DNA of 50,464 nt from Lachnospiraceae bacterium (lineage in GTDB: Bacteria > Bacillota > Clostridia > Lachnospirales > Lachnospiraceae), in contig JAFUYB010000053.1 in assembly GCA_017470735.1 (NCBI GenBank), forward strand, positions 1-50,464, written 5' to 3'. Under the pieces are notes generated by a model, which saw only the letters and a list, made by a program, of their open reading frames with translations, had not been told where the DNA came from and did no database searches. This document shows, one piece after another, positions 6,113 to 33,237 of the stretch. Made by a program: the position numbers and the translations under genes. Position 1 is the first letter of the stretch, and the number at the start of each line of letters is the position of its first letter.

Positions 6113-6116
6113 TCAT

Positions 6117-6736: not shown

Positions 6737-6751
6737 GGAGGTGGATCCATC

Positions 6752-8340: not shown

Positions 8341-8549
8341 GATATCACCCCTGTGGTTTAAAATTGGAGATATTTTAGCCTATCAAAGAAAGAAAATATC
8401 CACAAATAAACTATATATCTTATGATTAGGGTTGTCAAGTTTAAAATGGGATAGTTATTCTTTAATATGGGGGAATAAATGGAAAATAATAAACTGTGGC
8501 AGTGCAAGGGAAGTCATCATCTCGATTTAGACAAAACCCGTAAAACCAA

Positions 8550-9281: not shown

Positions 9282-10043
9282 CCCACGCAGTCTGCGGAAA
9301 AGTTTGATCCGTCCAGCTATATTCTTTGAATGTATATAAAATAGAGCTTAATAAAGGTTTGATTTACATCTGGACAGCAATACAAAGAGATGTTCTACTA
9401 GGTCTGTGATGTATTTGGGAATCAAGTCCGATTATGATTTGGAGATTATGAAGGCTGGAGAAGATCTGTTTGATATCAATATCCTCCAATGACGCGCCAT
9501 TTTTATATTTTCGGGTCATGGGATTATAAAACAGGGTTTTATAACCGCCAATCTGTGCATAATTATGAGATGTCCTTGAGCACGGAAAAAGCAATATTTC
9601 TGTCAGTTACGACCAAACCTTTTATTTTCAGCTAGATTTGTAATTTGATTTTCATAACTAAAGAAAGTATCTGCCATAAATTCACCATTGCTTTCAAAAA
9701 GAAAGAGACCTACAGGCCTCCTTCCCGGTCGCAGGCATCTCGAGTTTCTGCAACCTGATCACTTCAAACATTCTATGATATATCGCCATTTGTGTCAATA
9801 GAATTATTATAGTCGCCAGGGTTCTTTCTCATGATTCTTGCAACAGCGATAGTGGAAGAACTTGTTCTTATTAGCACGGATGAGCGTATGAGAAAAGAAG
9901 AATTACAATGCCAAGGTGAATTGCTGAAGGACGGCAGGATGGAAGAATAAAAGCAATTGTATAAAAATAGATATTATAGAAATAGCCTGAGCGGGATGCC
10001 CAGGCTGTTTTTGTGTGGGATATGTTTTGTTTTTACTGTTATG

Positions 10044-18425: not shown

Positions 18426-18643
18426 ATTTTCTCCTTTCGTTGCTTTAGAAGCCCTGTGAGCCGTTTTGGCTGCCTTGGGGTATTATTTTTGACTACCACT
18501 TTGACTACCAGCAGGGGTAAAAAAGGGGGTGTTTCGGCGAATTATGATAAACTTCAATAAAAGGGGTGTGGGTACTGTGAAGCCAGTGCTTACAATGGTT
18601 AGCGGTACTTATATGAACGATGGTAAACATTGGCAAATAAAAA

Positions 18644-18727
18644 TGCGGAGGATGGGACTTGAACCCACACGACATTGCTGCCACTAGATCCTTAGTCTAG
18701 CTCGTCTGCCAGTTCCGACACCTCCGC
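18644..18727 (-). tRNA. tRNA-Leu (class II, long variable arm); the anticodon loop as read is CUAAGGA, i.e. anticodon AAG
   Basis: Reverse complement is GCGGAGGTGTCGGAACTGGCAGACGAGCTAGACTAAGGATCTAGTGGCAGCAATGTCGTGTGGGTTCAAGTCCCATCCTCCGCA. T-loop is GGTTCAAGTCC. A34 is unusual for bacteria and needs checking. Confidence 0.75.
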
Positions 18728-18805
18728 ATTCGTCCGTTGAACGCAACGACTATATTACCAAAGACCCGGAAAAAAGTCAAGAAAGTTGCGGTCAGAAACA
18801 AATTT

Positions 18806-18836
18806 TTTTTCACAAACGCGAAAATTATGCTATACT
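18806..18836 (+). promoter_or_regulatory. Candidate promoter for the HD-GYP gene (extended -10 TGcTATACT)
   Basis: TGCTATACT at 18828-18836. The -35 is weak. Confidence 0.3.
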
Positions 18837-18875
18837 AATACGGCAACTTTGCAGGATTGGCATGGGAGAAAAGTT

Positions 18876-19970
18876 TTGGCGATCAAACAAAAGCGTGTCA
18901 GTATTCGGAAATTGGAAGAAGGGATGAAGCTCGGTCAGCAGATCAGGGATGCGACAGGACGGGTCTTGATCCAGCAGGGGACACAGCTTGAAGGGCATTA
19001 TATCCAGTACTTGGAGGAGCATGGCATCAACTCCATCATCATCCAGGAGGGTGAGGAGGACGGACCGCAGGTGCAGCTTTCGGACAAGGCAAAGCGCGCC
19101 GTTGAGCGGACGAGGGTGGATGATCCGGTCAAGGTTTCGCTGCGTGAAGATGTCAAAAAGCGTGTCGGCGAGGGCGTGCAGTTTTTATTTGACAATACGG
19201 AGTCCAAGAATTTTTTGGAGACGACGAACAATGTTTCCGAGGAATTGACGCGGGCGATCACCAAGTATGACGCTGTGGCGATCGATATTGCGCAGCTTAA
19301 AGTTTCAGATGAATACACATTCAAGCACAGCGTGGATGTGGCTTCCCTGTCGATGATCATTGGCAAGAAATACGGGCTGAAGAGGGACGAGATCCGGGAG
19401 ATCGGTATTGCGGGACTGCTGCATGATGTCGGCAAGTCCAAGATCCCAAAGCAGATTTTAAACAAGCCTGACCGTCTGACCGATGAGGAATTTCATCAGA
19501 TGAAGTTCCATTCCTTGTATGGTTACAAGATTTTGGAAGAAAACAACGGATTTTCCGTCGGCATCAAAAGCGGCGTGCTCCAGCACCATGAAAAGATGAA
19601 TGGAAAGGGTTATCCGATGTCGGTCGGCGGAGCGAAGATCCATCCGTTTGCGCGGATCATTTCGGTTGCGGATGTTTACGACGCATTGGTCACGGAACGC
19701 CCTTATAAAAAAGGTTTTCCGAAGAAGGACGCGATCGAGATCATTATGACGATGACCGATGACCTGGATATGAAAGCGATGAAGAGCTTTCTGACGAGCG
19801 TGATCCTCTATCCGGTGGACAGCATCGTCAGGCTTTCAAACGGCGAATACGGCAAGGTCGTTGAAAACAATCCCGATTACCCATTACGCCCCAAAGTCGT
19901 GGCGACCGAGACAGGCGCTGTGTACGATCTGAACAATGATGTCCACTGCCAGAGCATTGTGATTCTATAA
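18876..19970 (+). CDS. HD-GYP domain c-di-GMP phosphodiesterase
   Basis: HSVDV...LLHDVGKSKIP...HHEKMNGKGYP...VADVYDALVTERPYKKGF. TTG start at 18876 after GGGAGA. An alternative ATG lies at 18924. Confidence 0.8.
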   Translation: MAIKQKRVSIRKLEEGMKLGQQIRDATGRVLIQQGTQLEGHYIQYLEEHGINSIIIQEGEEDGPQVQLSDKAKRAVERTRVDDPVKVSLREDVKKRVGEGVQFLFDNTESKNFLETTNNVSEELTRAITKYDAVAIDIAQLKVSDEYTFKHSVDVASLSMIIGKKYGLKRDEIREIGIAGLLHDVGKSKIPKQILNKPDRLTDEEFHQMKFHSLYGYKILEENNGFSVGIKSGVLQHHEKMNGKGYPMSVGGAKIHPFARIISVADVYDALVTERPYKKGFPKKDAIEIIMTMTDDLDMKAMKSFLTSVILYPVDSIVRLSNGEYGKVVENNPDYPLRPKVVATETGAVYDLNNDVHCQSIVIL

Positions 19971-20035: not shown

Positions 20036-20069
20036 ACGGCTTGAGACAGAGCCGCTTTATATGGGAAAT

Positions 20070-20154
20070 GCACGAGTGGCGGAATTGGCAGACGCGCAGG
20101 CTTCAGGTGCCTGTGGTCGTTAAGATCGTGTGGGTTCAAGTCCCACCTCGTGCA
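20070..20154 (+). tRNA. tRNA-Leu (anticodon CAG)
   Basis: GCACGAGTGGCGGAATTGGCAGACGCGCAGGCTTCAGGTGCCTG...TGGGTTCAAGTCCCACCTCGTGCA. Anticodon loop is TTCAGGT. A T-run follows and no CCA is encoded. Confidence 0.85.
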
Positions 20155-20206
20155 TTTTTTGTGTATAATTGAGAAAACATTTCAAAACGACAAGGGAGGA
20201 ATGATT

Positions 20207-21232
20207 ATGTCATTATTCAAGAGCAAGCAATTCAGTTCGGTGATCGAGTGGGCGGATCCCGAGGAGGGAGTGCTGTTTCACCGATTTGACAATATCGAGC
20301 TCAAAAAAGGGTCGGTCTGCATCCTGCGCCCGGGGCAGGATGTGATCATTGTCAGCAACGGCGAGGTCAACGGCGTATTTACAAAGGACGGACGCTACAA
20401 TGTGGAGTCGGACATTATTCCGTTTCTGTCTACGGCTGCGGGCATTAAGTTCGGCTTTGACAGCGGACGGCGCATTGAAGCGGTTTTCGTCAACACCAAG
20501 GATATTTTGCAGAACTGGGGCACGCGCAGTCCGATCAATATCGAATTTCCGGGACTGCCGGGAGGCATACCGGTACGGGCAAACGGCAATTTTGTCTGCC
20601 ATGTCGATGAGGAGAAATACCCGGTTCTTGTCGAAAACATCGCCGGTATCCAGACCGAATTTACGGTAGAGGATCTGCGGGAACGGTTGCTCGGATCGAT
20701 CGAACAGTCGCTGATGCAGCATATTTCCCAGCTCGCGGGGACGATTCAGACCCTGCAGTCACAGGTGAGTACGATTTCGGCGGAGATTCTGCCGGAGATC
20801 GATGCGGAGACATCAAAATACGGCATCCGTATCCGTGATTTCAAGGTGATGAGCTTTTCCTATCCCGAAGGCGTGCAGGAGAAGCTCGAACAGGCCGCGG
20901 GTATCGGATTGCTGGGGAACAACATCGCGGCTTACCAGCAGGTGGCGCTGGCAGACGGCTTGCGCGAAGGCGGCGGAGCTGCAGGCATGGCAGGCATGTT
21001 TGTCGGTGCTCAGGCAGGCGCGCAGATGGGACAGAATTTCGTGGCAGGCGCAGCCCAGAACGCGGCAGGCGCAACTCAGAATGCAGTAGGCGGTGCCGGA
21101 ATGGGCGCAGCACAAAACGCGGCGGGAGCGGCACAGCAGCCGTCAGGCGGCGGTTTCTGCATTAAGTGCGGGACAGCGCTTCCGGCAGGCGCGGCATTCT
21201 GCCCGTCCTGTGGTAACAAGGTCGGTGCGTAA
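20207..21232 (+). CDS. SPFH (band-7/flotillin-like) domain protein with a Gly/Ala/Gln-rich tail and a C-terminal zinc ribbon
   Basis: AGGGAGGA RBS. The ORF-track start at 20150 overlaps the tRNA, so it was trimmed to the ATG at 20207. The C-terminus reads ...GGGFCIKCGTALPAGAAFCPSCGNK. Confidence 0.65.
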   Translation: MSLFKSKQFSSVIEWADPEEGVLFHRFDNIELKKGSVCILRPGQDVIIVSNGEVNGVFTKDGRYNVESDIIPFLSTAAGIKFGFDSGRRIEAVFVNTKDILQNWGTRSPINIEFPGLPGGIPVRANGNFVCHVDEEKYPVLVENIAGIQTEFTVEDLRERLLGSIEQSLMQHISQLAGTIQTLQSQVSTISAEILPEIDAETSKYGIRIRDFKVMSFSYPEGVQEKLEQAAGIGLLGNNIAAYQQVALADGLREGGGAAGMAGMFVGAQAGAQMGQNFVAGAAQNAAGATQNAVGGAGMGAAQNAAGAAQQPSGGGFCIKCGTALPAGAAFCPSCGNKVGA

Positions 21233-21299
21233 GCGTCGGGCAGTGTTTCACATCATTGGTATTTGAAAATGGCAGTTGACAAATGGGAGGTGGCGGTCA

Positions 21300-22826
21300 A
21301 TGAGGTCATGCCCGAATTGCGGAGGCGGTCTGAAATTTGACATCGGATCGCAGAAATTAAAATGTCCAAGCTGCAGCAGCATGTTTCCGGTGGGGGAGAT
21401 ACCGGAGGTGCGGGCGGCAAAGGCGGACGGGACGATGGATGCGATGATCTTTTCCTGCCCGCAGTGCGGCGGGGAGGTCTGGTCTACATCAGAGACAGCG
21501 GCAGGCTTCTGTTCATTCTGCGGCGCGTCCGTGCAGCTTGAAGGCCGGATGGCGGCGGAAAAGATGCCCGAGCAGATCATTCCGTTTCAGATTACCGGAA
21601 AGGAATGCGGCAAACGGTTCCGCGAGCATGTGAAAAAATATTTCTTTTCGCCGTCCGATTTGAGCCAGGAAAACGCGAAAATGGAATTCCGCGGGATCTA
21701 TATGCCTTATTGGGATTATACGGTGCACCAGGAAGCGCATATCGACCGGGAATACAGGGATGAGCATCGCAGCGGCGATTACCGGATCGTCCGGTACTAT
21801 GATTTTGACTGGGATCTGAATGAGGATATCGAAGCGATCCAGCACGATGCGTCGCGCTCGTTCAATGATGATGTCGGAGTGGCGATCGCGCCGTTTGAAC
21901 CGGAAAAACGGGTGGCGTTTGACTCCGGCTATATGGAAGGCTTCTATGGCGATGTGGCGGATACGCAGTGGGAGGATTACGCCGATTTCGCGATTGATGA
22001 AGCGGTTGGTTATACGGAGCGCGCGATCCGAACCAAGACAAAGGGTACCCGTACGGACAAGGGACCGACCGGCAATGATGAGTTTCATGGCCGGATTATA
22101 AAGCGTCAGCTTTCGCTGTTTCCGGTCTGGTTTTTGTCATACCGTTCCGGCAACCGGGTCGCGTATTCGGCGGTCAATGGACAGACGGGAAAGGTACATG
22201 TGGATCTGCCGGTGTCGCCGGCCAAATTCGCGGGACTGACTGCGGCGATCACGGCGGTACTGTTTGTGTTCTTTTTGCAGCTTTTTACTCCATCGCCGCA
22301 GACGGATGTCGGGATCGCGATGATCATGTCGATTGCCGCGTCCGCAATTTTTACGGTGATGACGCAAAAGATCCTCGAACGGGATGAACTGCTGGAAAAG
22401 AAAGAGAAAAAAGAGGGAAGCAATCGAAAAAAAGGACTGATTTTAGGCTGCACAGGCAGCTGCCTGATCGTCATTGTCCTTTTCGTATCGATTCTTGTGG
22501 GTTTGGTTTTCTTTATTGAAATAGCGGCAGCAGTGATCGCGCTATGGGCACTGGTCCGTTATTTGCAGAGGAACAAGCTGTTTGTCAAGGCAAACGGACA
22601 GGGCGTGTTCCCGTCGCCGCTTCTGGCATTTGCCGCGGCGCTTTTGGGCATTGCCGTGGTTTTGTGGAATCCGGTTTCCGATTTCTGGTACTACGGCATC
22701 ACGGCGCTGGCAATGGCAGCGGCCGCGATCTCTCTCGGTTCGATCATTGCGCTGCGGAATATGCTTTCGACGAGGCGCTTGCCGCAGTTTGACACGCACA
22801 AAGGAGGTGATCACCGTGCAAGGTAA
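21300..22826 (+). CDS. Multi-zinc-ribbon membrane protein (hypothetical)
   Basis: GGGAGGTGG lies 6 nt before the ATG. There are three CxxC pairs in the first 90 aa (CPNCGG, CPSC, CPQCGG, CSFCG). About six TM helices are predicted in the C-terminal half. Confidence 0.6.
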   Translation: MRSCPNCGGGLKFDIGSQKLKCPSCSSMFPVGEIPEVRAAKADGTMDAMIFSCPQCGGEVWSTSETAAGFCSFCGASVQLEGRMAAEKMPEQIIPFQITGKECGKRFREHVKKYFFSPSDLSQENAKMEFRGIYMPYWDYTVHQEAHIDREYRDEHRSGDYRIVRYYDFDWDLNEDIEAIQHDASRSFNDDVGVAIAPFEPEKRVAFDSGYMEGFYGDVADTQWEDYADFAIDEAVGYTERAIRTKTKGTRTDKGPTGNDEFHGRIIKRQLSLFPVWFLSYRSGNRVAYSAVNGQTGKVHVDLPVSPAKFAGLTAAITAVLFVFFLQLFTPSPQTDVGIAMIMSIAASAIFTVMTQKILERDELLEKKEKKEGSNRKKGLILGCTGSCLIVIVLFVSILVGLVFFIEIAAAVIALWALVRYLQRNKLFVKANGQGVFPSPLLAFAAALLGIAVVLWNPVSDFWYYGITALAMAAAAISLGSIIALRNMLSTRRLPQFDTHKGGDHRAR

Positions 22827-23775
22827 ACAGAAAAAGCAGGGAAGAACGCCTTTTGCGCGGCTGGAATCAGGCAGGCACGCCCGCTGTGCGGGATGGAAGA
22901 TGAGAATGGCATTTTTCGGTCTGCTGGCGGTTCTGTTGTGTGCGATAGTGCCGGGCAACGCGGTCTGTGCCGCGGAGGAGCTGACGGAAACGGCGGACGA
23001 ATTAAACGGTGCGTCAGATGAACTGTCTGATCCGGCGGACGGGACTGACGAAGCGTACGGAGATGCGGATGCGCAGGAGCAGAGCATCGAACTGGCATAC
23101 AAGAGCGACAAGAGCGGGAAGACGCTGGTCGTAGAGGACGGGGAGAACCTGTTTTCCGATAGTGAGATCCGGCAGTTTATAGAATCCGCCTCAGGCGTGC
23201 TGGAATATGCGAATGTCTATATCGTGACTTCAAGCGAAGAAAATTACGAAGGGTACGCGAAACGGCTGATTGACGATACCTTTGGCAACGGCTCGGATTC
23301 GACCTTGTTTATGATCAACATGAATCCGCGGAAGCTCTATATTTTCTCGGAAGGACAGGCGAAAAAGACACTGACGAAGGACAAGGCGCGGACGGTCACC
23401 GACAATATTTACCGTCAGGCGAGCCTCGGAGCGTACTATGCCTGCGCCGAGAAAGCGCTACGCCAGGAAGCGACGCTGCTTTCGGGAGGACGGATATTGG
23501 AGCCGATGAAGTATATCGGCGATTTCTTCCTCGCGTTTATGGTCGCCATCCTGCTGGTATTCGGGCAGACATTCTGGCTGCGTCCGAGGGAGAAGCGGGA
23601 AGTGATCGCCGGCATCGACGAAGCGGTGCTGGCAGCGATCGCATCGGGCATTGCGTTCAGCTTCAGCCGGGAGGAAAAGATTTACGATCCGCCAAGCAGC
23701 AGTGATTCCGGCTCCGGAGGAGGAGGCGGATTCAGCGGCGGTGATTCTGGTGCCGGCGGCGGGCATTCGTTTTAA
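22816..23775 (+). CDS. TPM-domain (YgcG-like) secreted/membrane protein
   Basis: AAGGAGGTG + 6 nt + GTG at 22816, overlapping the previous gene by 11 nt. There is a signal peptide. An acidic linker is followed by the TPM fold, one TM helix and a C-terminal SGGGGGFSGGDSGAGGGHSF tail. Confidence 0.6.
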   Translation: MQGKQKKQGRTPFARLESGRHARCAGWKMRMAFFGLLAVLLCAIVPGNAVCAAEELTETADELNGASDELSDPADGTDEAYGDADAQEQSIELAYKSDKSGKTLVVEDGENLFSDSEIRQFIESASGVLEYANVYIVTSSEENYEGYAKRLIDDTFGNGSDSTLFMINMNPRKLYIFSEGQAKKTLTKDKARTVTDNIYRQASLGAYYACAEKALRQEATLLSGGRILEPMKYIGDFFLAFMVAILLVFGQTFWLRPREKREVIAGIDEAVLAAIASGIAFSFSREEKIYDPPSSSDSGSGGGGGFSGGDSGAGGGHSF

Positions 23776-23787
23776 ACGGATGTCCGC

Positions 23788-24858
23788 TTACAGTTTGCGC
23801 ATACGGTCAGGATTGATCGCATAGGTCATTGCAGTTTCCCGCGTGATGCGCCCTTCGTGGTAAAGCTCCTTTAAGCTGTCGTCCATCGAGCGCATCCCGC
23901 CGCCGGTTCCCGAATAGATCATACCGTCAATCTGGTAGATCTTGTTGTCGCGGATCATGTTGCGGATCGCGGGCGTGACGGTCATGATCTCAAAGACCGG
24001 CACGATGCTGTTGTCGATGGTCGGCACGAGCTGCTGCGAGACGACGGCATGCAGCACGGTCGAAAGCTGTACCGCGATCTGGTGCTGCTGGTTTGCCGGG
24101 AACACATCGATAATACGGTTGATCGTATTGGCGGCACCGATCGTATGCAGCGTGGACAGCAGCAGGTGTCCGGTTTCCGCGGCCGTCATTGCGACAGAAA
24201 TCGTTTCAAAATCACGCATCTCACCAAGCAGGATGACATCGGGACTTTGGCGGAGCGCCGCGCGCAGGGCGGCGACATAGCTTTCGGTATCGACGACAAC
24301 CTCGCGCTGGCTGACGATGCTTTTTTTGTGCCGGTGCAGATACTCGATCGGGTCTTCAAGAGTGATGATGTGCGCTTCCCGCTTTTCGTTGATATCTTCA
24401 ATGATACACGAAAGTGTCGTGGATTTGCCCGAGCCGGCCTGGCCGGTCACGAGCACCATGCCGTTGGAGAAATTGCCGAGGTCGATGATCTCCTGCGGGA
24501 TGTGCAGCTTTGACGGATCGGGCAGCTCAAAGCTGATGATACGCATAACCGCGGACAATGCGCCCCTCTGTTTGTAGGCGCAGACACGGAATCTTGAGAA
24601 TCCGGGGATCGCAAGGGAAAAGTCGTCGTCGCCGCGGTCGATCAGGATGCGGATATCACGGTCGGCAAGGCGGTAGATTTCCCGCAGCAGTTCTTCCGTC
24701 TGCGCCGGGAATACCTTTTCTCCGCCGTCCATATTGATCACGCCGTTCTTGCGGAAGGACACCGGTATACCTGCGACGATGAACACATCGGATGCGCGTT
24801 CCCGTACTGCCCGCTCTAAGATCTGCTCGATTCTCGTTTTCTCTTCCATAGTAGTCAC
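23788..24858 (-). CDS. pilT: PilT-type type IV pilus ATPase (retraction-ATPase family)
   Basis: Walker A (GQAGSGKST). PilT signature AIRNMIRDNK. 356 aa. Confidence 0.8.
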   Translation of the reverse strand: MTTMEEKTRIEQILERAVRERASDVFIVAGIPVSFRKNGVINMDGGEKVFPAQTEELLREIYRLADRDIRILIDRGDDDFSLAIPGFSRFRVCAYKQRGALSAVMRIISFELPDPSKLHIPQEIIDLGNFSNGMVLVTGQAGSGKSTTLSCIIEDINEKREAHIITLEDPIEYLHRHKKSIVSQREVVVDTESYVAALRAALRQSPDVILLGEMRDFETISVAMTAAETGHLLLSTLHTIGAANTINRIIDVFPANQQHQIAVQLSTVLHAVVSQQLVPTIDNSIVPVFEIMTVTPAIRNMIRDNKIYQIDGMIYSGTGGGMRSMDDSLKELYHEGRITRETAMTYAINPDRMRKL

Positions 24859-24888
24859 CTCGTGTATGGTCGTTTGTTGTCAAAATAA

Positions 24889-25350
24889 TTACCGTATGAC
24901 ATTTACGGTATCGTCGCCCTCCCAATTCTTGGTGGCGATTGTTTTAAACTCCGAAAACCGGTAGGCATTGGTTTCTTTGTCGTATTTAAAGACAACGGAC
25001 AGCGCCTGGATATCGGAAAGCTCATACTGGCGGCTGATTTTTGTTTCTAGTGTATCCGGGGTGGCATTGTCGGCTGTATCCGCTGCATCCGGTTCTGTGC
25101 CGGCTGCATTATTTCCACTGCTTGCCGCCGCCTTTCGGTTCAGCTCCGCTAAGTCCGTCTCCGCCTGGTTTGCCGCGGCATAATAGGCGTCGCGGCTGCT
25201 TTTGGTCAGTCCTGCCTGATGCCATTCGTTTTCCGCCTGCACGAGTGCGATCGCGGAAAAGGTGAACAGGCACAAAATCAGGAACACGACTAGAAGCAGT
25301 GAGATGCCGATATTCGCGGGTGGCGAAGCGTTGTTGCGTTCTGTGTTCAT
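24889..25350 (-). CDS. Small membrane-anchored protein (pilus-associated, hypothetical)
   Basis: A single N-terminal TM helix. The gene is co-directional and tightly spaced within the pil-like cluster. Confidence 0.45.
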   Translation of the reverse strand: MNTERNNASPPANIGISLLLVVFLILCLFTFSAIALVQAENEWHQAGLTKSSRDAYYAAANQAETDLAELNRKAAASSGNNAAGTEPDAADTADNATPDTLETKISRQYELSDIQALSVVFKYDKETNAYRFSEFKTIATKNWEGDDTVNVIR

Positions 25351-25369
25351 AAAAAGAAGCTCCTGTCAC

Positions 25370-25834
25370 TTATGGCGATGGTTGCTTTGCGTGATTGACG
25401 GACAGACTGTACACCTCGTCGCCATTCACATTGCGAAAGGTCAGATCGGCGTTTAGCATGTCGTCCGTTTCCGTCAATTGTACCGTCTCGACCTGCGCGA
25501 GCGTGCTCTTTGCCGTCGGCAGGTAATTGTCGTTAAAGTAGATCGAGATTTCATAGGGATCGGATTCCTGCGAAAGCTCCGCGTATTCATATACCCGCCC
25601 GATCTGCTGGGATACTTCCTCGATCGAGTTGGAGGTCCGTACCAGCTCCGCCGTGTCCGAGCAGATGTTCAATGCGTGGTTCAGCGCCTTGGCGCGTTCG
25701 CTCTGGATGTGCGCCTGCACGAAAATGGTAATGCACACGGACGCCGCCAATGTAAAAAACAAGATCGCGACGACAAGCTCCATCAGAAAGAGAGAGGAAG
25801 CAGACGCTCTTTTTCGCTTTAATTCCGCATTCAT
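25370..25834 (-). CDS. Prepilin-like protein (type IV pilin / pseudopilin candidate)
   Basis: The N-terminus KRKRASASS|LFLMELVVAILFF has Glu at +5 from the putative cleavage site, with Ser instead of the canonical Gly at -1. The stop overlaps the next gene's start by 4 nt. Confidence 0.5.
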   Translation of the reverse strand: MNAELKRKRASASSLFLMELVVAILFFTLAASVCITIFVQAHIQSERAKALNHALNICSDTAELVRTSNSIEEVSQQIGRVYEYAELSQESDPYEISIYFNDNYLPTAKSTLAQVETVQLTETDDMLNADLTFRNVNGDEVYSLSVNHAKQPSP

Positions 25835-26415
25835 GGTGTTCCTCCGGTTGATGTATCCGTGCTCTGGCCTGTTGCCGCAGCTGTCCCCGGTGTCTTGCTG
25901 CTTTCCGTGAAGCTGTTATCGACAACCAGATCCCCCGCATACACGCCGACCCGCGCTGTCGCCGTCTGTCCGTCGTTGTCCGTGCAGGAGAAAGACAGCA
26001 GGCGGTCTCCGGCGACCTCTACATTGAAATCCGCGATCTCGAGGATCGCCTGGCCGGAGGATGCGGTGAAATTCGCTTCCATGCCGTCCTTGATGAACAG
26101 CTCCCTCAACGCGCCGTTTGCCGCGTAAATATAAGTAGCGTACCAGTCATCGCCGAATTTTTCCTTCATCACGACTGCCTTAGAACCGTCAAAGGTCGTC
26201 ACGCCGATCCGCCCGTTGTCGTGCTGGTGGATCTTCTCGCGGATGTAGGAGAGCGAGGTGTTGGCGTTGTAATTCATGGCCGCGTCGGCAACCGTCCGCT
26301 GGTATACCTGCGCCGCGAAAAGAATGACGATCAGCGCAGAAAGTGTGAATGCAAAAAAAATCATAACAGGAAATACAAATTCAATTTGCCGGTTTTTTGA
26401 AACAGGTTTCCGCAT
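25831..26415 (-). CDS. Membrane-anchored protein (pilus-assembly accessory, hypothetical)
   Basis: N-terminal TM helix with a Thr/Gly-rich C-terminus. Confidence 0.45.
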   Translation of the reverse strand: MRKPVSKNRQIEFVFPVMIFFAFTLSALIVILFAAQVYQRTVADAAMNYNANTSLSYIREKIHQHDNGRIGVTTFDGSKAVVMKEKFGDDWYATYIYAANGALRELFIKDGMEANFTASSGQAILEIADFNVEVAGDRLLSFSCTDNDGQTATARVGVYAGDLVVDNSFTESSKTPGTAAATGQSTDTSTGGTP

Positions 26416-26434
26416 ATTGTTACTTTCCTTGGTG

Positions 26435-26902
26435 TTACCTTAAAATAGTGCGGTTTTCGGCGCGTTCGAGGATATTATTCTTCATCTCCTCTTTCTTTTC
26501 TAACACCGCATACACGGTCTCCTGCGCGAAGCCGATTGCCTTTTGCGCAGGCGTGCGGGTGTCTTCGGGATGCAGCTCGATGATCGTCACATCGGGAATA
26601 ATGTTCTGCGCCCGCACCTGATAATCCACATAAAACAGGTCTTCATTGTAATACAGTCCGTAATCCGAGCGGATGGCCTCAAGGGATTCCGGATAATGTC
26701 CGGTCGTGGCGTAGCAGTAGACGATGTCGCGGGAGAGCGCGTCGGTCAGGCTTTCCTTCTGTCTTTTGGTGGAGCCTTTGCTTAAAGAACCCGTGCCGAC
26801 CACAAAAAGCACGATGACCATCGTAAACAGCAGCAGGGTCGGAAGCAGTGAGGCAAGCGTGCCGGTATGCCGTTTGGTTGTGATATAAGAAAACCGTGCC
26901 AT
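26435..26902 (-). CDS. Membrane-anchored protein (hypothetical)
   Basis: N-terminal TM helix. No canonical prepilin motif. Confidence 0.45.
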   Translation of the reverse strand: MARFSYITTKRHTGTLASLLPTLLLFTMVIVLFVVGTGSLSKGSTKRQKESLTDALSRDIVYCYATTGHYPESLEAIRSDYGLYYNEDLFYVDYQVRAQNIIPDVTIIELHPEDTRTPAQKAIGFAQETVYAVLEKKEEMKNNILERAENRTILR

Positions 26903-26970
26903 AAATCAACTCCCCGGCACTCCCGGGACAGATGCTTAAAAACCAGCAGCACATCCCGGCAGCATTCCCA

Positions 26971-28107
26971 TTACAATGTCGCCATAATCCCAAGCAGCGG
27001 GAACATTACGGACAGCAGGATCACACCGACCACGACCGAGAGCACGACGATCAGCGCGGGCTCTAAAACCGCCAGCCGGTTGGAGATTTTTGTGTCTATT
27101 TCATCTTGGTAAAGCGTTGCGATCTGCCCCATGACCTGGTCGAGCGAACCGGTCTTGTTGCCGATTGAGGTCAGGCGCGAATACACGCCGGTAAAAATGC
27201 TCGTCTCGTGAAGCGCGTCGGAAAGCGATGTGCCCTCCAGCATCTTGGCGCGGCACTTGTCAAGCTTCTTGCCAAAGTCTTTATCTTCGTTCAATTCCGC
27301 CACCAACTCAAAGCCGCGGTCAGGCGAGAGTCCGCTCCGCAGGATCAAAGACATGCCGTCCGCAAAACGGCAGGAGGCGATGCGGTCGTTCAGTTCCCTT
27401 GTCGCCTTGAACCGTCTTGTAACTCTTCTCGATAAGGCTTTTCCGGCATCGGTCTTGACGCAGAAGAACGCAAAGATAATGATGACGGCGAGCAGGATTA
27501 CAAACAGCAGCGCGTAGGTGCTGATGAAGTTGGACGCTGCCATCAGTCCCGCGGCAAAGCCTGTCATTTCGGTGCCGAGCTGGCGGAATACCTGGTTGAA
27601 GATCGGCATCACACGCACCAGCAGAATGATAATGACCGCAATGATCATGCCCGACATGATCAGAGGGTAGGTGACCGCGCTCTGGATCGACTGCCGCAGC
27701 TGTTCCTCGCGGCTGTAATGCTCTTCAAGCGCTTCCATGACCTCATCGAGATTGCCGGTTTCCTCGCCGATCGCGACCATATGGATCATATAGTCGGGAA
27801 AAGCTTCCGTAGCGGCCAGGCCGACCGAAAGCTGCCCGGTCAGATGCACGGTCTCCACGATGATCTCGACGATTTGCCGGTCCGCGCCGGTGGAGAAGTC
27901 ATCCTCCATCATTTCCACGCCCTCGATCGAGGAAATGCCGGACTTTAAGATCAGAGCCATCTGCCCGCAGAAATAGGACAGCTCCAGATAAGAGAGCGGA
28001 CGGATTTTTTTCCGGCGGCTCTTTTTGGGCTTCTTTGCCCGTGGCTCCTTTTTTGGTTTTTCGGTTTTTATTTTTGCTCTTTTTCGTGGCATAATCTTTC
28101 CCGTCAT
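26971..28107 (-). CDS. pilC: PilC/GspF-family platform protein with an unusual ~45-aa Lys/Arg-rich N-terminal extension
   Basis: Two T2SSF repeats (GISSIEGVEMM...; GLSPDRGFELV...). The N-terminus reads MTGKIMPRKRAKIKTEKPKKEPRAKKPKKSRRKK. Confidence 0.75.
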   Translation of the reverse strand: MTGKIMPRKRAKIKTEKPKKEPRAKKPKKSRRKKIRPLSYLELSYFCGQMALILKSGISSIEGVEMMEDDFSTGADRQIVEIIVETVHLTGQLSVGLAATEAFPDYMIHMVAIGEETGNLDEVMEALEEHYSREEQLRQSIQSAVTYPLIMSGMIIAVIIILLVRVMPIFNQVFRQLGTEMTGFAAGLMAASNFISTYALLFVILLAVIIIFAFFCVKTDAGKALSRRVTRRFKATRELNDRIASCRFADGMSLILRSGLSPDRGFELVAELNEDKDFGKKLDKCRAKMLEGTSLSDALHETSIFTGVYSRLTSIGNKTGSLDQVMGQIATLYQDEIDTKISNRLAVLEPALIVVLSVVVGVILLSVMFPLLGIMATL

Positions 28108-28166
28108 CGGAATGCCTTAAGACGCGCTGTCCGGCGTCTGCGGCAATCCCTGCACTTAAGCCAAGA

Positions 28167-29096
28167 TCAATAGGTATATTTTGTCGTGTAATTGCTGCCG
28201 TCTCCGACATAATCCTTCACCGATTCGTCGTCGTTGTTGGCGGCAAGCGTCGGATCCATCAGAGACCAGTTCTGGCCGTTAAACTGGATGATGTCGTCCA
28301 CCCAGCCCTGCTCCGCCAGATAGACGGAAATCCATGCGTGGTAGGCCGTGCCCGAATAGCCGACCTCCAGCTTGGTCGGGACGCTCTGGGAACGCAGCAT
28401 GGCGCTCATGACCGAAGCGTAATCGAAGCAGATGCCGGTCTTGGATTCTAAGGTCGCGTCCACATCGGGGATATAGTTGACCGAAATGTCGGCCGCCTTT
28501 TCATTGTCATAGGAAATATTTTCGGTGACATATTCGTACACATTGGTCACGAAATCCAGGTCATCCGAGGAGTCATTGGAAATATCGACGCCCAAAGAGA
28601 CCGCGGCGGAATCCGGTGTGTAATTGACATACTGGTTCGGATAGAGGTACGGGCGGAATTCGTCCGTCAGTGCCACATCCACGGGCTGTGAAAGCCCAAC
28701 GGAATACATATCATCCGAAACGTGCTCCAGCACATCGATCTGGTACGAACCGTCGCCGCCGGTCAGAGGCAATGTCTGGTAATCGCCGATCGGCAGGGGA
28801 TACTGATACAAAGTGCCGTCGGGATTCGTGATCTGTACCTGGATCTTGTCCGCGGCACCAGTGTATTTGACCATCACATAGCCGTCTGCCGTGTTGGAAG
28901 CATCGATGGAAATGGTATCGCCGCCGTAGACCACCTCGCCGGAGGCTTCCGGCATCAGCGTGGATGTCGTCGTCTCGCGTGTGCCGCCGGATGAGTCGTT
29001 GCTTTTGGCTTTGCCGCCGCCTTTGGAGCATCCTGAAAGGATGAGCGCGCCGGAAAGCGCAGTGACGCAAAGCAGTGATAAAAATTGTCGTTTCAT
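28167..29096 (-). CDS. Transglutaminase-like cysteine-protease-fold lipoprotein
   Basis: Lipobox LILSGCS. Catalytic triad context: GICFDYASVM, YHAWISVY and LMDPT. Confidence 0.7.
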   Translation of the reverse strand: MKRQFLSLLCVTALSGALILSGCSKGGGKAKSNDSSGGTRETTTSTLMPEASGEVVYGGDTISIDASNTADGYVMVKYTGAADKIQVQITNPDGTLYQYPLPIGDYQTLPLTGGDGSYQIDVLEHVSDDMYSVGLSQPVDVALTDEFRPYLYPNQYVNYTPDSAAVSLGVDISNDSSDDLDFVTNVYEYVTENISYDNEKAADISVNYIPDVDATLESKTGICFDYASVMSAMLRSQSVPTKLEVGYSGTAYHAWISVYLAEQGWVDDIIQFNGQNWSLMDPTLAANNDDESVKDYVGDGSNYTTKYTY

Positions 29097-29151
29097 TGGT
29101 TCCCCTCCTGATTCATAATGACCTGCCGCCGGAATATGGCGGATGTCCGTT

Positions 29152-30153
29152 TTATTTATGGTTTACGACCGCGTGCAGGACATTGCCGGTGCGGTCAGGT
29201 ATGTACACATTCAGGTAATCATCCGGATACTGGAAGATCAGCTCACCGATGATCGCGTTGTAGGATGCAGGTTCAACCTTGTTGCCCGCCGAATCGAGGG
29301 CGTATATCCGCTTCCAGTTGACGCCGCTGCCCGTATCCTTGATGTACAGATACACCTTGTCGTCCACGGTCTTGCTCGAAACCAGTTCCGGCACATCGCG
29401 GTCTACGCCGGTCACATTGGTTGTCTCGACGACCGTACGCTTGTTGAGGAAGTTGACCGTCACATCCATCTGCCCATTGGCAGTCGGCAGAATATAATAG
29501 CTCTTTTTTCCGTCCTGCAGGACAGGCATGACCTTGTCGCCGATCTGCGCCGTCGCCGTGTCCACGGGAATGAACGAATCGATAGTGAAAGTGTATTTCA
29601 ACTGCCCGCTTTTCGCTGCCGCCTTGTCGATGTCGAGCGTGTATTCCGGCGTGATCGTAAACAGCGGAATCGCGGCAAAGCAGAGGATGATGAAAAACAC
29701 AAAATACCGCTGCAATGCGTGTCTCTGCATCCGGTATTCATTGTACTCGATCAGTGTCACAAGCGGAATCGTGTTTGGTTTGCGTCCTTCCTCATAAAAG
29801 ACGAATTCTAAAAGCCGCTCGGCATCGTCCAGAGAAAAATCCGGTATTTTCGGACGGCCTTTGGGCGGGACAATGTCCATCGCATCGGCAAGCACCTCGC
29901 ACATTTCGATGTTCATATTGTTCATCCACTTGATGAAATTCTCCGACCGGTTGAGCCGGCTGATCGAGTGCAGGGCGTTTAAATAGATATCAAGGAGCGT
30001 ATCCTGCACTAACGCCTTGTCCCAAAGATAGCTGTATGCCAGCTTGTACTGCTCTTCGTAAGTAATGGCAAAAAGACTCGCAAAGGCATTGCTGTCTTGG
30101 AGTCTGGCATCTTTCACAAGGGATGCAATATATTTGAAATCGATACTTGCCAA
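29152..30153 (-). CDS. Membrane protein with an N-terminal sigma-70 region-2-like domain only (no region 4), one TM helix and a C-terminal extracytoplasmic domain
   Basis: The first ~90 aa (LVKDARLQDSNAFASLFAITYEEQYKLAYSYLWDKALVQDTLLDIYLNAL...FIKWMNNM) match the ECF sigma region-2 pattern. The TM helix is YFVFFIILCFAAIPLF. Confidence 0.55.
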   Translation of the reverse strand: MASIDFKYIASLVKDARLQDSNAFASLFAITYEEQYKLAYSYLWDKALVQDTLLDIYLNALHSISRLNRSENFIKWMNNMNIEMCEVLADAMDIVPPKGRPKIPDFSLDDAERLLEFVFYEEGRKPNTIPLVTLIEYNEYRMQRHALQRYFVFFIILCFAAIPLFTITPEYTLDIDKAAAKSGQLKYTFTIDSFIPVDTATAQIGDKVMPVLQDGKKSYYILPTANGQMDVTVNFLNKRTVVETTNVTGVDRDVPELVSSKTVDDKVYLYIKDTGSGVNWKRIYALDSAGNKVEPASYNAIIGELIFQYPDDYLNVYIPDRTGNVLHAVVNHK

Positions 30154-30195
30154 AGGAGCAACACCTTCCTTTGCCTGGATAATCCAAAAACGCCG

Positions 30196-31128
30196 TTACA
30201 ATGCCATCCGCTGGCGGAACAGCTGTACGCGTGTCCGCTTCGTGTCGAGCATCTGCAGCTTCTGCGCGCCGATCAGCGCGATGTCCTCCTGCGTGAAGGT
30301 CACGGAAAGAGGCAGGGGTTCGAGCTGTTCTTCTTCGATCAGCTCCTCAAACGGAATGATTTCCTGCAGCAGCTTTTCATTTTCGCTCTGTTCTTCTTCG
30401 ACAGCGGCTTCGCCGCGGACTTTCTCGGTCAGACGGTTGGATGAAAGAGCAATCAACCGCGTGATCGAGGTGATATCGTCCCGCGCGGCATAGGCCACGC
30501 CAAATTCGTACTCGATGTGATGGTTCTTGGTATTGGCATTGTAATCCCGCACTTTATCCGCCAGGCGGTCCAAAAAGACCGCGAGATGCAGATCGGAGCT
30601 TTTTTCATATAATATAATGAAGCGGTTGCCGCCGTTGCGTCCGACGATGCATTCGTCCAGTGAAGCCATCGACAGAATGATCGAAAAGGCGCGGATCAGG
30701 TTGTTGCCCTCAACGCGTCCATAGTTGGAGTTGACCTCTTTTAATGAAGTCAATTCGATCATCGCGGCGCCCATCTCGCCCGGAATGTCCTTGTCAGCGT
30801 ATTCATCGATGATCGAGTCGATCGAATAGCGGTTGGCGATCCGCGCGACCGAGTCGGTATTGGCGGCTGCGGTCAGGCTCGCTAAATTTTCGTTCTGTTT
30901 TGAGTATAGGGAGAAATCGACAAAGATGCAAGCAAAACTCAAAAAAAGTGATACCCAAAGGAAAATACACAGATGCATGACATTTTTATCCGTGGTGATC
31001 TGCTGGTAGATATCGCTTGCGATGACGATTTGGTAGAAGCAGACGCCTGCGAAGGCCATGAAGACGACGAGTTCTAAGGTTTTCATTTGGTCGAATTTTT
31101 TCATTTGTACACACACCTTTCTCAGCAC
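30196..31128 (-). CDS. Membrane protein with a degenerate GGDEF domain (GGNRF in place of GG[DE]EF)
   Basis: Two N-terminal TM helices. DSVARIANRYSIDS...RVEGNNLIRAF...IVGRNGGNRFIILYE. Confidence 0.6.
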   Translation of the reverse strand: MLRKVCVQMKKFDQMKTLELVVFMAFAGVCFYQIVIASDIYQQITTDKNVMHLCIFLWVSLFLSFACIFVDFSLYSKQNENLASLTAAANTDSVARIANRYSIDSIIDEYADKDIPGEMGAAMIELTSLKEVNSNYGRVEGNNLIRAFSIILSMASLDECIVGRNGGNRFIILYEKSSDLHLAVFLDRLADKVRDYNANTKNHHIEYEFGVAYAARDDITSITRLIALSSNRLTEKVRGEAAVEEEQSENEKLLQEIIPFEELIEEEQLEPLPLSVTFTQEDIALIGAQKLQMLDTKRTRVQLFRQRMAL

Positions 31129-31177
31129 AATAGAACTTTAGCTGTCTACTCCACACATAGTAGACTCTTGCATCAAC

Positions 31178-32509
31178 TTAAATGCCGATGGCGATATCGA
31201 GGAAAAATTCGCTGTCGGTTGTCGAAATTCGTAAAGTTCCGTTATATTTATCGACCGTTTCGCGGATTGACTGAAGACCTATTCCGTGATGTTTTTCTTT
31301 TTTTGACGAAAAAGTGGGATTTTCGCCGGTTGTATCTAAAATCAACTCACCGTCATAGCTGTTTGAGGAGACGATGTAGAGCATCGAATCGTTCTGGATG
31401 CGGATGGAGATCGAAAATTTCCGCGCGGCGACAGGGGCGTCCTTGGCGGCGTCGATCGCGTTTTCCATGATGTTGCCGAGCAGGGAACAGAATTCCGGAT
31501 CGCTCATGGGAAGCGGACGGGGCAGGTCGACCTGCAGGCTGGCGATCACGCCTTCTTCGGCGGCGCGGGTCTCGTAATAATTCAGAACGGCGTTGATCGC
31601 CGGATTTTTGCAGTATTTTTGCATGATCGTGCCGGCGCTTTCTTTGGCGTATTCACGGATGTAGCTGCGCAGACCTTCGGTATCGCCGGAGGCCGCAAGC
31701 TGTGAGAGCAGGTGCAGCGTATGCTTGAAGTCGTGGCGGGCGTGGCGGTCGGATTCGATCTGTGACAGCAGGCTCTTGTACTGCAGGCTTTGGATATCAG
31801 AAAGCCGCTGCGCCTCTTTGTACTCGCTGATGTGAATGTATTCCAGCAGGTAGGAGTAAAAGATCGAGGTCAGGTAAGCGTAGAGGACGAACAGGGAGAC
31901 CGAGAAAAACAGGTAGGTGCCGTATTGCGAATAGGCGTGCAGGACACGGTAATCATTCGGCAGCATCGCGATATTCAGCCCGAGAAACAATATCGGTACG
32001 GAAAGCCAACCCATCCAGAGGCTTTCCGGCGTATAGTGAGGTGAAAAAATACGGCTGTCCCATTTTGCGACGACGAAATACGCATAGAGGCAGAGCGCGA
32101 TATTTAAAACCAGGTGCATCGTAAATTCATTTACCCCGAAGGACATCGTGACATGCTTCGGGTGAGCCGCCGCATCGATCAGGCTGGTGATATTTGCCGG
32201 AAACATCATCAATACCACTGCCCACAGGTAGACGGTCAGGCTCCGCGCGGGCGTCAGATCGACGGAGAAGAAAAATATCGGAAAATAAATCGCGAAAAAG
32301 ACCAGAAGCGCCCGGTTGTCGATCAGAAAGGTGTGCGTCTGTATCAGTGACATTGCCGGTACGCAGGCGAGGCTGAAAACGGCGCAGTCAAGCACCAGTA
32401 CCGTCGTGGAAATACGCAGGGCAGGTTTTGCGATGATGTAGGCGCAGAAAAAGACACAGAGCAGCTCAAATAAGGCGGAAAGGCTGTTGTAATCGGAAAA
32501 ACCGTTCAT
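31178..32509 (-). CDS. Sensor histidine kinase of the AgrC/LytS-type (HPK10), partner of the LytTR regulator
   Basis: Polytopic N-terminus. H-box RHARHDFKHTL. HATPase G-box HHGIGLQSIRE. Confidence 0.8.
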   Translation of the reverse strand: MNGFSDYNSLSALFELLCVFFCAYIIAKPALRISTTVLVLDCAVFSLACVPAMSLIQTHTFLIDNRALLVFFAIYFPIFFFSVDLTPARSLTVYLWAVVLMMFPANITSLIDAAAHPKHVTMSFGVNEFTMHLVLNIALCLYAYFVVAKWDSRIFSPHYTPESLWMGWLSVPILFLGLNIAMLPNDYRVLHAYSQYGTYLFFSVSLFVLYAYLTSIFYSYLLEYIHISEYKEAQRLSDIQSLQYKSLLSQIESDRHARHDFKHTLHLLSQLAASGDTEGLRSYIREYAKESAGTIMQKYCKNPAINAVLNYYETRAAEEGVIASLQVDLPRPLPMSDPEFCSLLGNIMENAIDAAKDAPVAARKFSISIRIQNDSMLYIVSSNSYDGELILDTTGENPTFSSKKEKHHGIGLQSIRETVDKYNGTLRISTTDSEFFLDIAIGI

Positions 32510-33237
32510 TATTTCTGCCCCTCCCGAAGCTGGTCAAACATGTAATTCTGCCATTGCTGCTCGATCTGTCCCGCTTCCCTTACCTTGATCGGGAATGAGG
32601 TGCCGTCGGTCAGGGAGCAGCTCCCTTTTTCGATGCGGCGGATCTGGTCCATATTGACGACGATCCCTTTGTTGATGATCAAAAAGCGCTTGTCCCCGTT
32701 GACAGACCCGAGGAATTCTTTGGTGGTCATCCGTGTCGTATATTCTTCGCCGCTGCGCGCTTTGATATGCAGGTAATGTCCCTGGCTCTGCGTCCAGACC
32801 AGTTCGGAGAGCGGCAGGCGGATTTCCTGGCGGTTGGACAAGAAAGAAATGTACTTTGTCAGCTCAGGAAGCACTTTTTCGGCATCCGCTAAAAGCGTCG
32901 TCACCCGCTCCTGGGAGATCGGCTTGACGAGATAATCAAAGGCGTGGAAGCGAAACGCTTCGGGCATATTTTCCCTGCTTGTCGTGCAGAAAATGATCAT
33001 CGTGCTTTCGGAGGTGCCGCGGATCTTGCGGGCAAGCTCCAGCCCGTCGGTTTCATCGATGTAGATATCCAGAAATACGATCTGGTAGGAATCCGGGGAA
33101 AACGCCGATAAAAAGGAAGCGCTGTCAGAGAACCCGTCGACCGTCATGGAGATGCCGAGACTGTCCGCGGACAGCGCAAGCAGGTCGCGCAGTGTGCGGA
33201 TAGCTTCTATTTCGTCGTCTACAACAGCAACTCGCAT
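32509..33237 (-). CDS. LytTR-family response regulator
   Basis: AAGGGGGA RBS + ATG at 33237. Receiver domain (VAVVDDE...FLDIYIDE) plus LytTR domain (LSELVWTQSQGHYLHI...KRFLIINKGIVVNMDQI). Confidence 0.8.
   Translation of the reverse strand: MRVAVVDDEIEAIRTLRDLLALSADSLGISMTVDGFSDSASFLSAFSPDSYQIVFLDIYIDETDGLELARKIRGTSESTMIIFCTTSRENMPEAFRFHAFDYLVKPISQERVTTLLADAEKVLPELTKYISFLSNRQEIRLPLSELVWTQSQGHYLHIKARSGEEYTTRMTTKEFLGSVNGDKRFLIINKGIVVNMDQIRRIEKGSCSLTDGTSFPIKVREAGQIEQQWQNYMFDQLREGQK

Follow-up and report, generated by a model that had tools for sequence, protein, structure and literature searches.

We analyzed a stretch of 50,464 nucleotides from a Lachnospiraceae bacterium (GenBank assembly GCA_017470735.1, contig JAFUYB010000053.1), hereafter called the window, whose list of open reading frames (ORFs) contains a string of eleven co-directional genes on the minus strand at positions 23788-33237. 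This cassette appears to encode a machine of the type IV filament (T4F) superfamily that represents a subtype not described before. In transcription order, the genes code for a LytTR response regulator, an AgrC-like histidine kinase, a membrane protein with a degenerate GGDEF domain, a predicted fusion of sigma factor region 2 with a membrane protein, and a core of seven proteins comprising a transglutaminase-fold lipoprotein, a PilC/GspF-family platform, four small membrane proteins (s1 to s4) and a PilT-family ATPase. An earlier sequence-only reading had described eleven genes with gaps of at most 68 bp and two overlaps. Both this layout and all its domain assignments were reproduced, the latter by searches with hidden Markov models. 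The gaps measured 19-68 bp and the overlaps 1 nt (response regulator and kinase genes) and 4 nt (s2 and s3); the gap between the kinase and GGDEF genes amounts to 73 bp if the latter gene begins at a conserved ATG at 31104 and not at the GTG at 31128.

A terminator-like hairpin with a T-run closes the upstream ECF-S transporter gene, and the string begins about 140 bp beyond it. The ATG start codon of the first gene at 33237 is preceded by the ribosome-binding site AAGGGGG, and at the opposite end pilT is separated by 12 bp from a convergent gene. Given the short gaps and overlaps, the 5′ hairpin, the ribosome-binding site and the convergent gene at the end, the eleven genes likely form a single operon. 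Generic promoter and terminator scans yielded site counts that were not above those of shuffled sequence, and an Rfam scan of the window reported only two tRNAs and no riboswitch for cyclic di-GMP (c-di-GMP) or any other ligand.

Searches seeded with DUF4860, the Pfam family of s2, gave 23 locus identifiers (L numbers); as L001 coincides with L007 and L018 is nearly identical to L019, these stand for 21 distinct places. The loci come from metagenome-assembled genomes (MAGs) of rumen Lachnospiraceae, from Lachnospiraceae bacterium XBD2001, Faecalicatena contorta and a Dorea MAG, and from gut metagenome bins. Conservation of the neighborhood, which the sequence-only reading had named as a check, was found in all 21 places: wherever the contig was long enough, the core showed the order transglutaminase lipoprotein, PilC, s1, s2 (DUF4860), s3, s4 and PilT. 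The intergenic distances within the core were short, and the flanking genes were unrelated between loci. The seven-gene core is thus inherited as one block, and its synteny is far beyond chance. For complete genes, identity to the window ranged from 68 to 96% for PilT and from 42 to 88% for PilC, and for the small proteins from 39 to 83% (s1), 38 to 76% (s2), 29 to 69% (s3) and 26 to 73% (s4). A gradient from PilT over PilC to the small proteins is usual for a motor and exposed subunits. In a library of 1.84 billion proteins, the members of DUF4860 (E up to 0.001) fell into 2,746 clusters when grouped at 50% identity, which indicates that the cassette is common.

The window, which reaches 23.8 kb beyond the string on one side and 17 kb on the other, contains no PilB/GspE gene, no A24 prepilin peptidase gene, no second T2SSE or T2SSF gene and no PilM, PilN, PilO or secretin domain. 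The absence of these components from the gene string, already noticed in the sequence-only reading, therefore extends to the whole 50 kb. In the other loci, the core has neither pilB nor a prepilin peptidase gene beside it, with two exceptions: L013 carries an A24 gene and L017 a Tad locus. This Tad locus (TadA) also provided the only further T2SSE or T2SSF gene found at a distance of up to 10 kb from the core. The neighboring pilB and prepilin peptidase genes that would have counted against the earlier reading were thus not found, apart from these two exceptions. The gene in L013 (9400-9969) encodes a short A24 prepilin peptidase (Pfam, E 1e-12), has the same orientation as pilT and follows it after about 220 bp. 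A homolog of it opens the Tad locus of L017 (A24, TadZ, TadA), which is located 6 kb downstream of the cassette.

The core starts with the gene of the transglutaminase-fold lipoprotein (28167..29096, minus strand like all genes of the cassette), which matched Transglut_core (E 4e-18) and carries the lipobox LSGC. This gene is always located directly upstream of pilC, and its product is a lipoprotein in most loci. The papain-like Cys-His-Asp triad was kept in 15 of 16 loci. In L013 (4257-5228), the catalytic Cys is replaced by Ala (GIAFDY) and the His and Asp are retained. The platform gene follows (26971..28107); its product matched T2SSF (E 6e-48) in two stretches corresponding to two T2SSF domains. 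All of the NCBIfam models for GspF, HofC, PilC and ComGB matched this protein below their cut-offs, the best being GspF with 202 bits (cut-off 424), and ComGB with 115 bits (cut-off 240) scored lower than GspF or PilC. The Lys-rich N-terminal extension of the platform, which had been noted for the window, is indeed present there, but is a clade-specific trait that is absent in L001, L011 and L014.

The last gene (23788..24858) encodes the only T2SSE ATPase of the cassette (T2SSE, E 3e-44), a member of the hexameric PilT family. It scored 410 bits with the PilT model TIGR01420 (cut-off 319) and only 128 bits with ComGA (cut-off 300), 129 with GspE (630), 116 with PilB (676) and 41 with the TadA-family model (373). 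The closest sequence in the PDB was Aquifex PilT (2EWV, E 3e-90), whereas PilB matches reached only 1e-26, and the C-terminal PilT motif of the AIRNLIRE type is present as AIRNMIRD. By these sequence criteria, the ATPase is assigned to the PilT clade.

The four small proteins are bitopic with an N-in/C-out orientation, and their hydrophobic segments comprise 22-25 residues. Their N-terminal motifs were compared over 15 loci. The protein s1 (26435..26902; 155 amino acids (aa) in the window, about 110 aa in most loci) has a single transmembrane (TM) helix and no pilin motif in the alignment. An invariant M-x-R-F N-terminus is followed by the TM helix and by the pattern KRQ...CYA..G.YP...YGL.YNE..F.VDY, with an invariant Arg-Gln just outside the membrane. 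This protein could be a pilin or a PilN/O-like anchor. A role as a GspG/ComGC-like major pseudopilin was considered because of the PulG-like sequence Y..G.YP..L and rejected, as hhalign against a profile of four PDB-derived GspG sequences gave a probability of 2.5% and a PDB profile search returned no pilin. A GC-rich hairpin without a proper T-tail (TCCCGG-GAGTG-CCGGGG, 26912-26928, minus strand) is located in the 68-bp spacer between pilC and s1, before the s1 ribosome-binding site, and might influence the subunit genes that follow it in their relative expression or stability.

The second small protein, s2 (25831..26415, 194 aa), belongs to DUF4860 (E 6e-28), the sole Pfam match among the four. 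A model built from an alignment of 97 sequences (predicted local distance difference test score, pLDDT, 79) showed a continuous N-terminal helix of 58 residues followed by eight strands. In a fold comparison, the model matched GspJ, EpsJ and XcpW; a Foldseek search returned nothing significant, and the hit with the highest TM-score and probability was a Thermus pilin. According to this model, s2 and DUF4860 have the fold of GspJ/PilW-type minor pilins. The N-terminal TM helix of s2 keeps an acidic residue in the motif RQIEFxFP. Relatedness of this N-terminus to TadE was rejected: TadE carries the Pro at E+6, whereas s2 has it at E+4, and s2 lacks a conserved Gly.

The remaining two proteins resemble pilins in their N-terminal motifs. 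The 154-aa s3 (25370..25834) has an N-terminus like a class III signal sequence (S-LFLMEL), in which the Glu of helix alpha1N is invariant and the residue at -1 is Ser, Thr, Asn or His instead of Gly. A faint match to N_methyl was obtained for two of 13 members (E 0.45). In s4 (24889..25350, 153 aa), G15, S17 and A39 are invariant; the Gly precedes the TM helix (NIG-ISLLLVVFL) at the position of prepilin cleavage and is followed by x-S-L-L-L-V-V with no Glu at +5, a pattern that may resemble GspK, PilX or ComGG. The prepilin signal is thus distributed over the set, with E+5 but no G-1 in s3, G-1 but no Glu in s4, and only the acidic residue in s2. No Pfam match was obtained for s1, s3 or s4 when members were searched one by one (E up to 10; only noise apart from the N_methyl match of s3), no sequence match was found in the PDB, and a concatenated s1, s3 and s4 alignment matched nothing in the protein database. 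Common ancestry of s1 to s4 is not shown, as their profiles align only through the N-terminal helix. In summary, s2 is predicted to be a pilin by its modeled fold, and s3 and s4 are pilin-like by their N-terminal motifs. The sequence-only reading had recognized a prepilin-like N-terminus in one small protein only, which underestimated the set in view of the GspJ-type fold of s2 and the invariant Gly of s4. Of the structure predictions it had suggested for the small proteins, that of s2 revealed a pilin fold, and the single-sequence AlphaFold2 model of s3 was unreliable (pLDDT 56).

With a T2SSE ATPase, a GspF/PilC-type platform and at least one subunit of predicted pilin fold, the cassette has the components by which, on sequence and model evidence, it belongs to the T4F superfamily. 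Its content and order differ from those of Pil, Com, Tad and type II secretion system (T2SS) operons, as had been suspected: the family models of these systems stayed below their cut-offs except for PilT, and the defining genes were missing. A literature search found no description of the cassette and no mention of DUF4860, and s1, s3 and s4 are named "hypothetical protein" at NCBI, so that the earlier suggestion of an undescribed system held up. With the T2SS, the cassette shares the best NCBIfam match of its platform and the fold matches of DUF4860, and a short assembly similar to a tip complex would be the most economical interpretation of four pilin-like genes of low similarity. In contrast to a T2SS, it lacks GspE, GspL, GspM, GspC, a secretin and GspG, its host is monoderm, and the platform reaches less than half of the GspF cut-off. 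Tad/Flp systems offer a precedent for the use of one ATPase, since CpaF of Tad acts as a single motor for extension and retraction (PMC6920026), and the bacteria that carry the cassette also have Tad loci that include a short A24 peptidase. The cassette differs from them in its single two-domain PilC instead of TadB plus TadC, its ATPase is not TadA, it encodes no Flp pilin, TadZ or RcpC, and no Flp or TadE Pfam match was found among its proteins. A parallel also exists in Archaea, where type IV pilus loci are associated with transglutaminase-family surface peptidases for reasons that have not been explained (Makarova et al., 2016, PMC4858521). In both cases, a T4F gene cluster is regularly accompanied by a surface-exposed protein of transglutaminase fold. 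The archaeal loci differ in their FlaI/VirB11-type ATPases, FlaJ-type platforms and class III signal peptides that are cut by FlaK or PibD, and PilT is absent from Archaea.

We favor the interpretation that the cassette encodes a self-contained T4F machine of Lachnospiraceae with the PilT-clade ATPase as sole motor, to which we assign a rough probability of 45%. It is favored because pilC always occurs with pilT, the gene order is kept in unrelated surroundings, and there is no second ATPase or platform gene nearby. In such a machine, the PilT-type hexamer would bind to the PilC platform and would be the sole motor that shifts the pilin-like subunits out of the membrane and back into it. The product would be a short pseudopilus or a stub resembling a tip complex rather than a long pilus, as no obvious major pilin is encoded. 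At the outer face of the membrane, the Cys-His-Asp lipoprotein could act on the subunits or on a surface substrate by processing or cross-linking, or could open the peptidoglycan, and the output would likely be surface adhesion or the display of surface proteins. The pseudo-GGDEF membrane protein would be a conserved, non-catalytic accessory. A use of PilT beyond retraction is not without precedent, since PilT was reported to promote extension of MSHA (mannose-sensitive hemagglutinin) pili (PMC9815625).

Several points weigh against this interpretation. The main uncertainty is that pilB, pilD, pilMNO or a major pilin gene may lie elsewhere in the genome, as the analysis covered the window and the loci. 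A trustworthy model is available for only one of the four small proteins (s2). None of them has the full canonical prepilin motif with G(-1) and E(+5), the window contains no prepilin peptidase gene, and pilins are not known to assemble in unprocessed form. The roles given to the transglutaminase, the pseudo-GGDEF protein and the fused sigma protein are pure inference, and control of the cassette by the LytTR system is inferred only from co-location in one operon. Finally, PilT-clade ATPases are classical retraction motors (PMC6668835, PMC6916266). A more specific version of the self-contained machine is doubtful, namely that the PilT-clade ATPase is the sole and hence the assembly motor, that the four non-canonical pilin-like proteins form a short pseudopilus without being cut by a classical prepilin peptidase, that a dedicated transglutaminase lipoprotein covalently cross-links them, for which the invariant Arg-Gln of s1 might be relevant, trims them or couples them to giant adhesins, and that the whole serves as a regulated organelle for adhesion or display.

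The type IVa pili (T4aP) of monoderms such as S. sanguinis, Clostridium perfringens and C. difficile are the systems with which the cassette shares its ATPase, which qualifies as PilT by TIGR01420 and the AIRNMIRD motif. It could be an accessory module of an ordinary T4aP that contributes the platform, a priming set of minor pilins and the retraction ATPase, while PilB, prepilin peptidase, PilM, PilN, PilO and the major pilin are encoded elsewhere. This alternative, unlikely in our view but to be taken seriously, would account for the bona fide PilT, for the lack of an evident major pilin and for the GspJ/PilW-like fold of DUF4860, which is of the minor-pilin type. T4aP genes are often scattered (PMC6668835), a pilB-pilT-pilC operon exists in some Lachnospiraceae (Clostridium sp. 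L2-50, Table S1 of PMC3244431), and the A24 peptidase gene follows pilT in L013. However, the tabulated pil operons of monoderms nearly always list pilB and pilC together (PMC3244431), whereas in the cassette pilC invariably has pilT, and in no case pilB, as its partner. PilB/PilF, PilM/N/O, PilD and a canonical major pilin are missing from the cassette and its surroundings, and no PilM, PilN or PilO Pfam match was found among the cassette proteins or in the flanking genes. Moreover, the small proteins do not follow the G-1 and E5 consensus of monoderm T4aP pilins (PMC6916266), and the core order is kept in unrelated surroundings with an invariable transglutaminase gene, which has no known place in T4aP. 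Lachnospiraceae such as R. gnavus, which may or may not carry the cassette, have been classified as possessing Tad but no pil operon.

A second alternative dispenses with pilin assembly. The small proteins s1 to s4 would be exported by Sec, and a dedicated type I signal peptidase would cleave off their hydrophobic N-terminal segments as signal peptides. PilC, PilT and the transglutaminase would have a different role, for example to export, release or cross-link these proteins or the neighboring giant adhesins. Genes for orthologous S26 signal peptidases are located beside the cassette in two arrangements in L001/L007, L011, L014 and L023 (with a remnant in L012), and giant LPXTG or Flg_new adhesin genes adjoin it in L014, L017, L018/L019, L020, L022 and L023. 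Small-x-small motifs follow the hydrophobic segment in s1 (S-x-S), s3 (V-x-A/S) and s4 (x-x-A with an invariant Ala). These motifs are degenerate, however, and genuine pilins have similar ones where alpha1N ends, while the window has neither an S26 nor an adhesin gene near the cassette. Hydrophobic segments of 22-25 residues and the conserved acidic residue of s2 and s3 are traits of pilin alpha1N that are atypical of signal peptides, and the predicted DUF4860 pilin fold includes its N-terminal helix as one continuous element of 58 residues. We therefore regard Sec-dependent export as improbable.

Com systems (comGA-comGG) resemble the cassette in being compact monoderm operons in which a single platform gene precedes several small pilin-like genes as in comGB-GG and in which there is one short ATPase that lacks the N1 domain; in addition, ComGF is regarded as the GspJ-like minor pilin of Com, the class matched by the DUF4860 fold, and in B. 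subtilis the prepilin peptidase gene comC is located apart from the operon. A divergent Com-type pseudopilus for DNA uptake is nevertheless very improbable, since the ATPase belongs to the PilT clade and is encoded by the last instead of the first gene, ATPase and platform fail the ComGA (128 bits against 410 for PilT) and ComGB (115 bits, cut-off 240) models, no ComGC-like major pilin was detected and no ComEA, ComEC or ComFA gene occurs in the window, the transglutaminase and the sigma and GGDEF partners have no counterpart in Com, and Com systems are described as lacking PilT (PMC6668835).

A self-contained machine would be of interest because it is poorly understood how Lachnospiraceae, which rank among the most abundant bacteria in the human gut and the rumen, attach to surfaces or to each other. 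The cassette would represent a new minimal model of T4F motors, consisting of PilC and a PilT-type ATPase without PilB, PilM/N/O or a canonical pilin, in which it could be examined whether a "retraction" ATPase can drive assembly. If the sole-motor pseudopilus is real, it would provide these abundant gut and rumen bacteria with a regulated organelle for adhesion or display, and a function would be assigned to DUF4860 and to three unannotated families. The invariable transglutaminase partner has its parallel in archaeal pilus loci, where the association is likewise unexplained, and a single experiment could be informative for both.

The first gene of the operon (32509..33237) encodes the LytTR response regulator of 242 aa (Response_reg, E 5e-17; LytTR, E 1e-7) and the second (31178..32509) the AgrC-like membrane histidine kinase of the HPK10 type with 443 aa (HATPase_c_5 of the GHKL group, E 5e-19). 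The NCBIfam AgrC model aligned to residues 58-437 of this multi-TM kinase (E 9e-8), a resemblance along its entire length, but the score was far below the model cut-off. No AgrB-like gene was found among the scanned ORFs of the window, and no search for small peptide genes was made. The sequence-only reading had presented this two-component system as the driver of the machine, which did not hold across relatives. The response regulator was found only in the window and in L002-L004, L001/L007, L011 and L012, which correspond to the clade of the window plus the clade of Lachnospiraceae XBD2001. The kinase is restricted to the clade of the window itself (the window and L002-L004). The LytTR system does not define the machine but is a clade-specific regulator. 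The promoter regions of the closest loci were too diverged to reveal any LytTR-binding repeats.

The most common arrangement is a ten-gene unit composed of the pseudo-GGDEF gene, a gene for an intact extracytoplasmic function (ECF) sigma factor (161-186 aa, region 4 present), a gene for a membrane protein of about 237 aa and the core (L014, L018/L019, L020, L022 and L023). The Dorea MAG has the sigma gene, which was called at only 90 aa and matches region 4, and the gene of the 237-aa protein, and it lacks the GGDEF gene. In the subclade of L013 and L017, a divergent BTAD regulator is found instead, and L014 and L020 carry both kinds. The divergent regulator of L013 (2357-4027) comprises a weak Trans_reg_C match, a BTAD domain and a weak GGDEF-like segment; orthologous BTAD regulators are encoded upstream of the cassette in L014, L017 and L020.

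Comparison with the ten-gene unit also clarified the nature of the 333-aa protein (29152..30153), which had been described as a membrane protein with sigma region 2 only. Pfam gave no match for this protein, and NCBIfam models of ECF sigma factors matched, with their N-terminal part only, residues 11-86 (E 9e-9). Residues 1-85 are 38% identical to residues 1-85 of the intact 161-aa sigma factor of L014, and 36% identity over 223 aa was found to the separate 237-aa membrane protein of L014, which is named "hypothetical protein" at NCBI. From the N-terminus, the protein consists of ECF sigma region 2 (residues 1-85), a linker, and a single-pass membrane protein with a beta-rich extracellular domain. 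Sigma70_r4_2 is present in the intact sigma factor of L014 and lost from the protein of the window. Thus, region 2 without region 4 was correctly recognized, but the alignments indicate that the protein arose by fusion of an ECF sigma factor to the 237-aa membrane protein with deletion of region 4. The fused form is conserved in L001-L004 and L011. Among loci with enough upstream sequence, it occurs only alongside the LytTR regulator, namely in the window, L001-L004 and L011; in L012, the regulator is kept and the fused gene is gone altogether. From this distribution, it looks as if the two-component system replaced ECF sigma control in the clade of the window. Transcription would then most likely start from one promoter upstream of the LytTR regulator gene driven by the AgrC/AgrA-like system, which would have taken over from the more common pair of ECF sigma factor and membrane protein and left the fused protein without region 4 as a remnant. 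The transition to a LytTR system with a decaying fused sigma factor would be a clean case of regulatory rewiring.

The GGDEF gene (30196..31128, likely start ATG 31104) encodes a membrane protein with two TM helices and a degenerate domain (GGDEF, E 4e-14) with the motif GGNRF. In all eight aligned loci, the sequence GRNGGN[RK]F was kept down to 40% identity and the first metal-binding motif DxDxFK was replaced by IELTSLK; an RxxD I-site five residues upstream of the GGDEF motif was not seen in these eight loci. The alignment argues for a conserved pseudo-enzyme that is non-catalytic. As the motifs are lost and the I-site is missing, the link to c-di-GMP suggested by the sequence-only reading is not established and remains nominal. 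Genuine c-di-GMP genes are located a few kb from the cassette, encoding a GGDEF-EAL protein (10789-13425, plus strand), a 1298-aa membrane GGDEF protein with Reg_prop beta-propeller repeats (13484-17380, minus strand) and an HD_5 protein of the HD-GYP-like type (18786-19970, plus strand). Genes with GAF/HD_5 or GGDEF-EAL domains are also found near the cassette in L001 and L014.

In the vicinity of the cassette, giant surface adhesin genes occur in at least six loci (L014, 1-5549; L017, 1948-7361; L018/L019, 1-5280; L020, 1-5292; L022, 1-4904; L023, 14484-20510). The products of 1,100 to more than 6,000 aa are either of the SpaA/Cna_B/VWA type with an LPXTG anchor or of the Flg_new/MBG/CLIPPER type. 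In five loci, the adhesin gene is divergent and directly upstream, and in L023 it is found some 2 kb beyond the downstream end; the cassette of the window has no such gene nearby. These neighbors may reflect an adhesion island or a functional link. The S26 type I signal peptidase orthologs are 44-59% identical to each other (L001/L007, 3806-4327; L011, about 4287-4763; L014, 12535-13065; L023, 12593-13132), and their genes either precede the cassette in divergent orientation or follow it and converge on pilT. The catalytic motifs SM-PT (Ser) and KR-V (Lys) are kept in L014 and L001, the two that were read. A gene for a clostripain-family (C11) peptidase of about 900 aa is located directly downstream of pilT in convergent orientation in L009 (6906-9596) and L017 (12667-15414), with 65% identity between the two proteins.

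In the window, three plus-strand genes at 20150-23775 converge on pilT. They encode an SPFH/Band-7 protein with a zinc ribbon, a 516-aa zinc-ribbon/DUF7351 protein and a TPM-domain membrane protein with a Gly/Ser-rich tail, and this trio was not seen beside the cassette in other loci. Two tRNA-Leu genes with the anticodons AAG and CAG are located on opposite strands on either side of the HD_5 gene (18643-18728 and 20069-20155). The G+C content is 39-46% at the ends of the window (1-10000 and 47764-50449) and 50-57% in the middle, and that of the cassette equals that of its housekeeping neighbors. Genes of the type found on mobile elements are located at the ends, encoding an IS66 Orf2-like TnpB (6752-7318), an HTH-metallophosphatase (8550-9281), a HipA-like kinase (47764-48897) and a serine recombinase (49340-50449).

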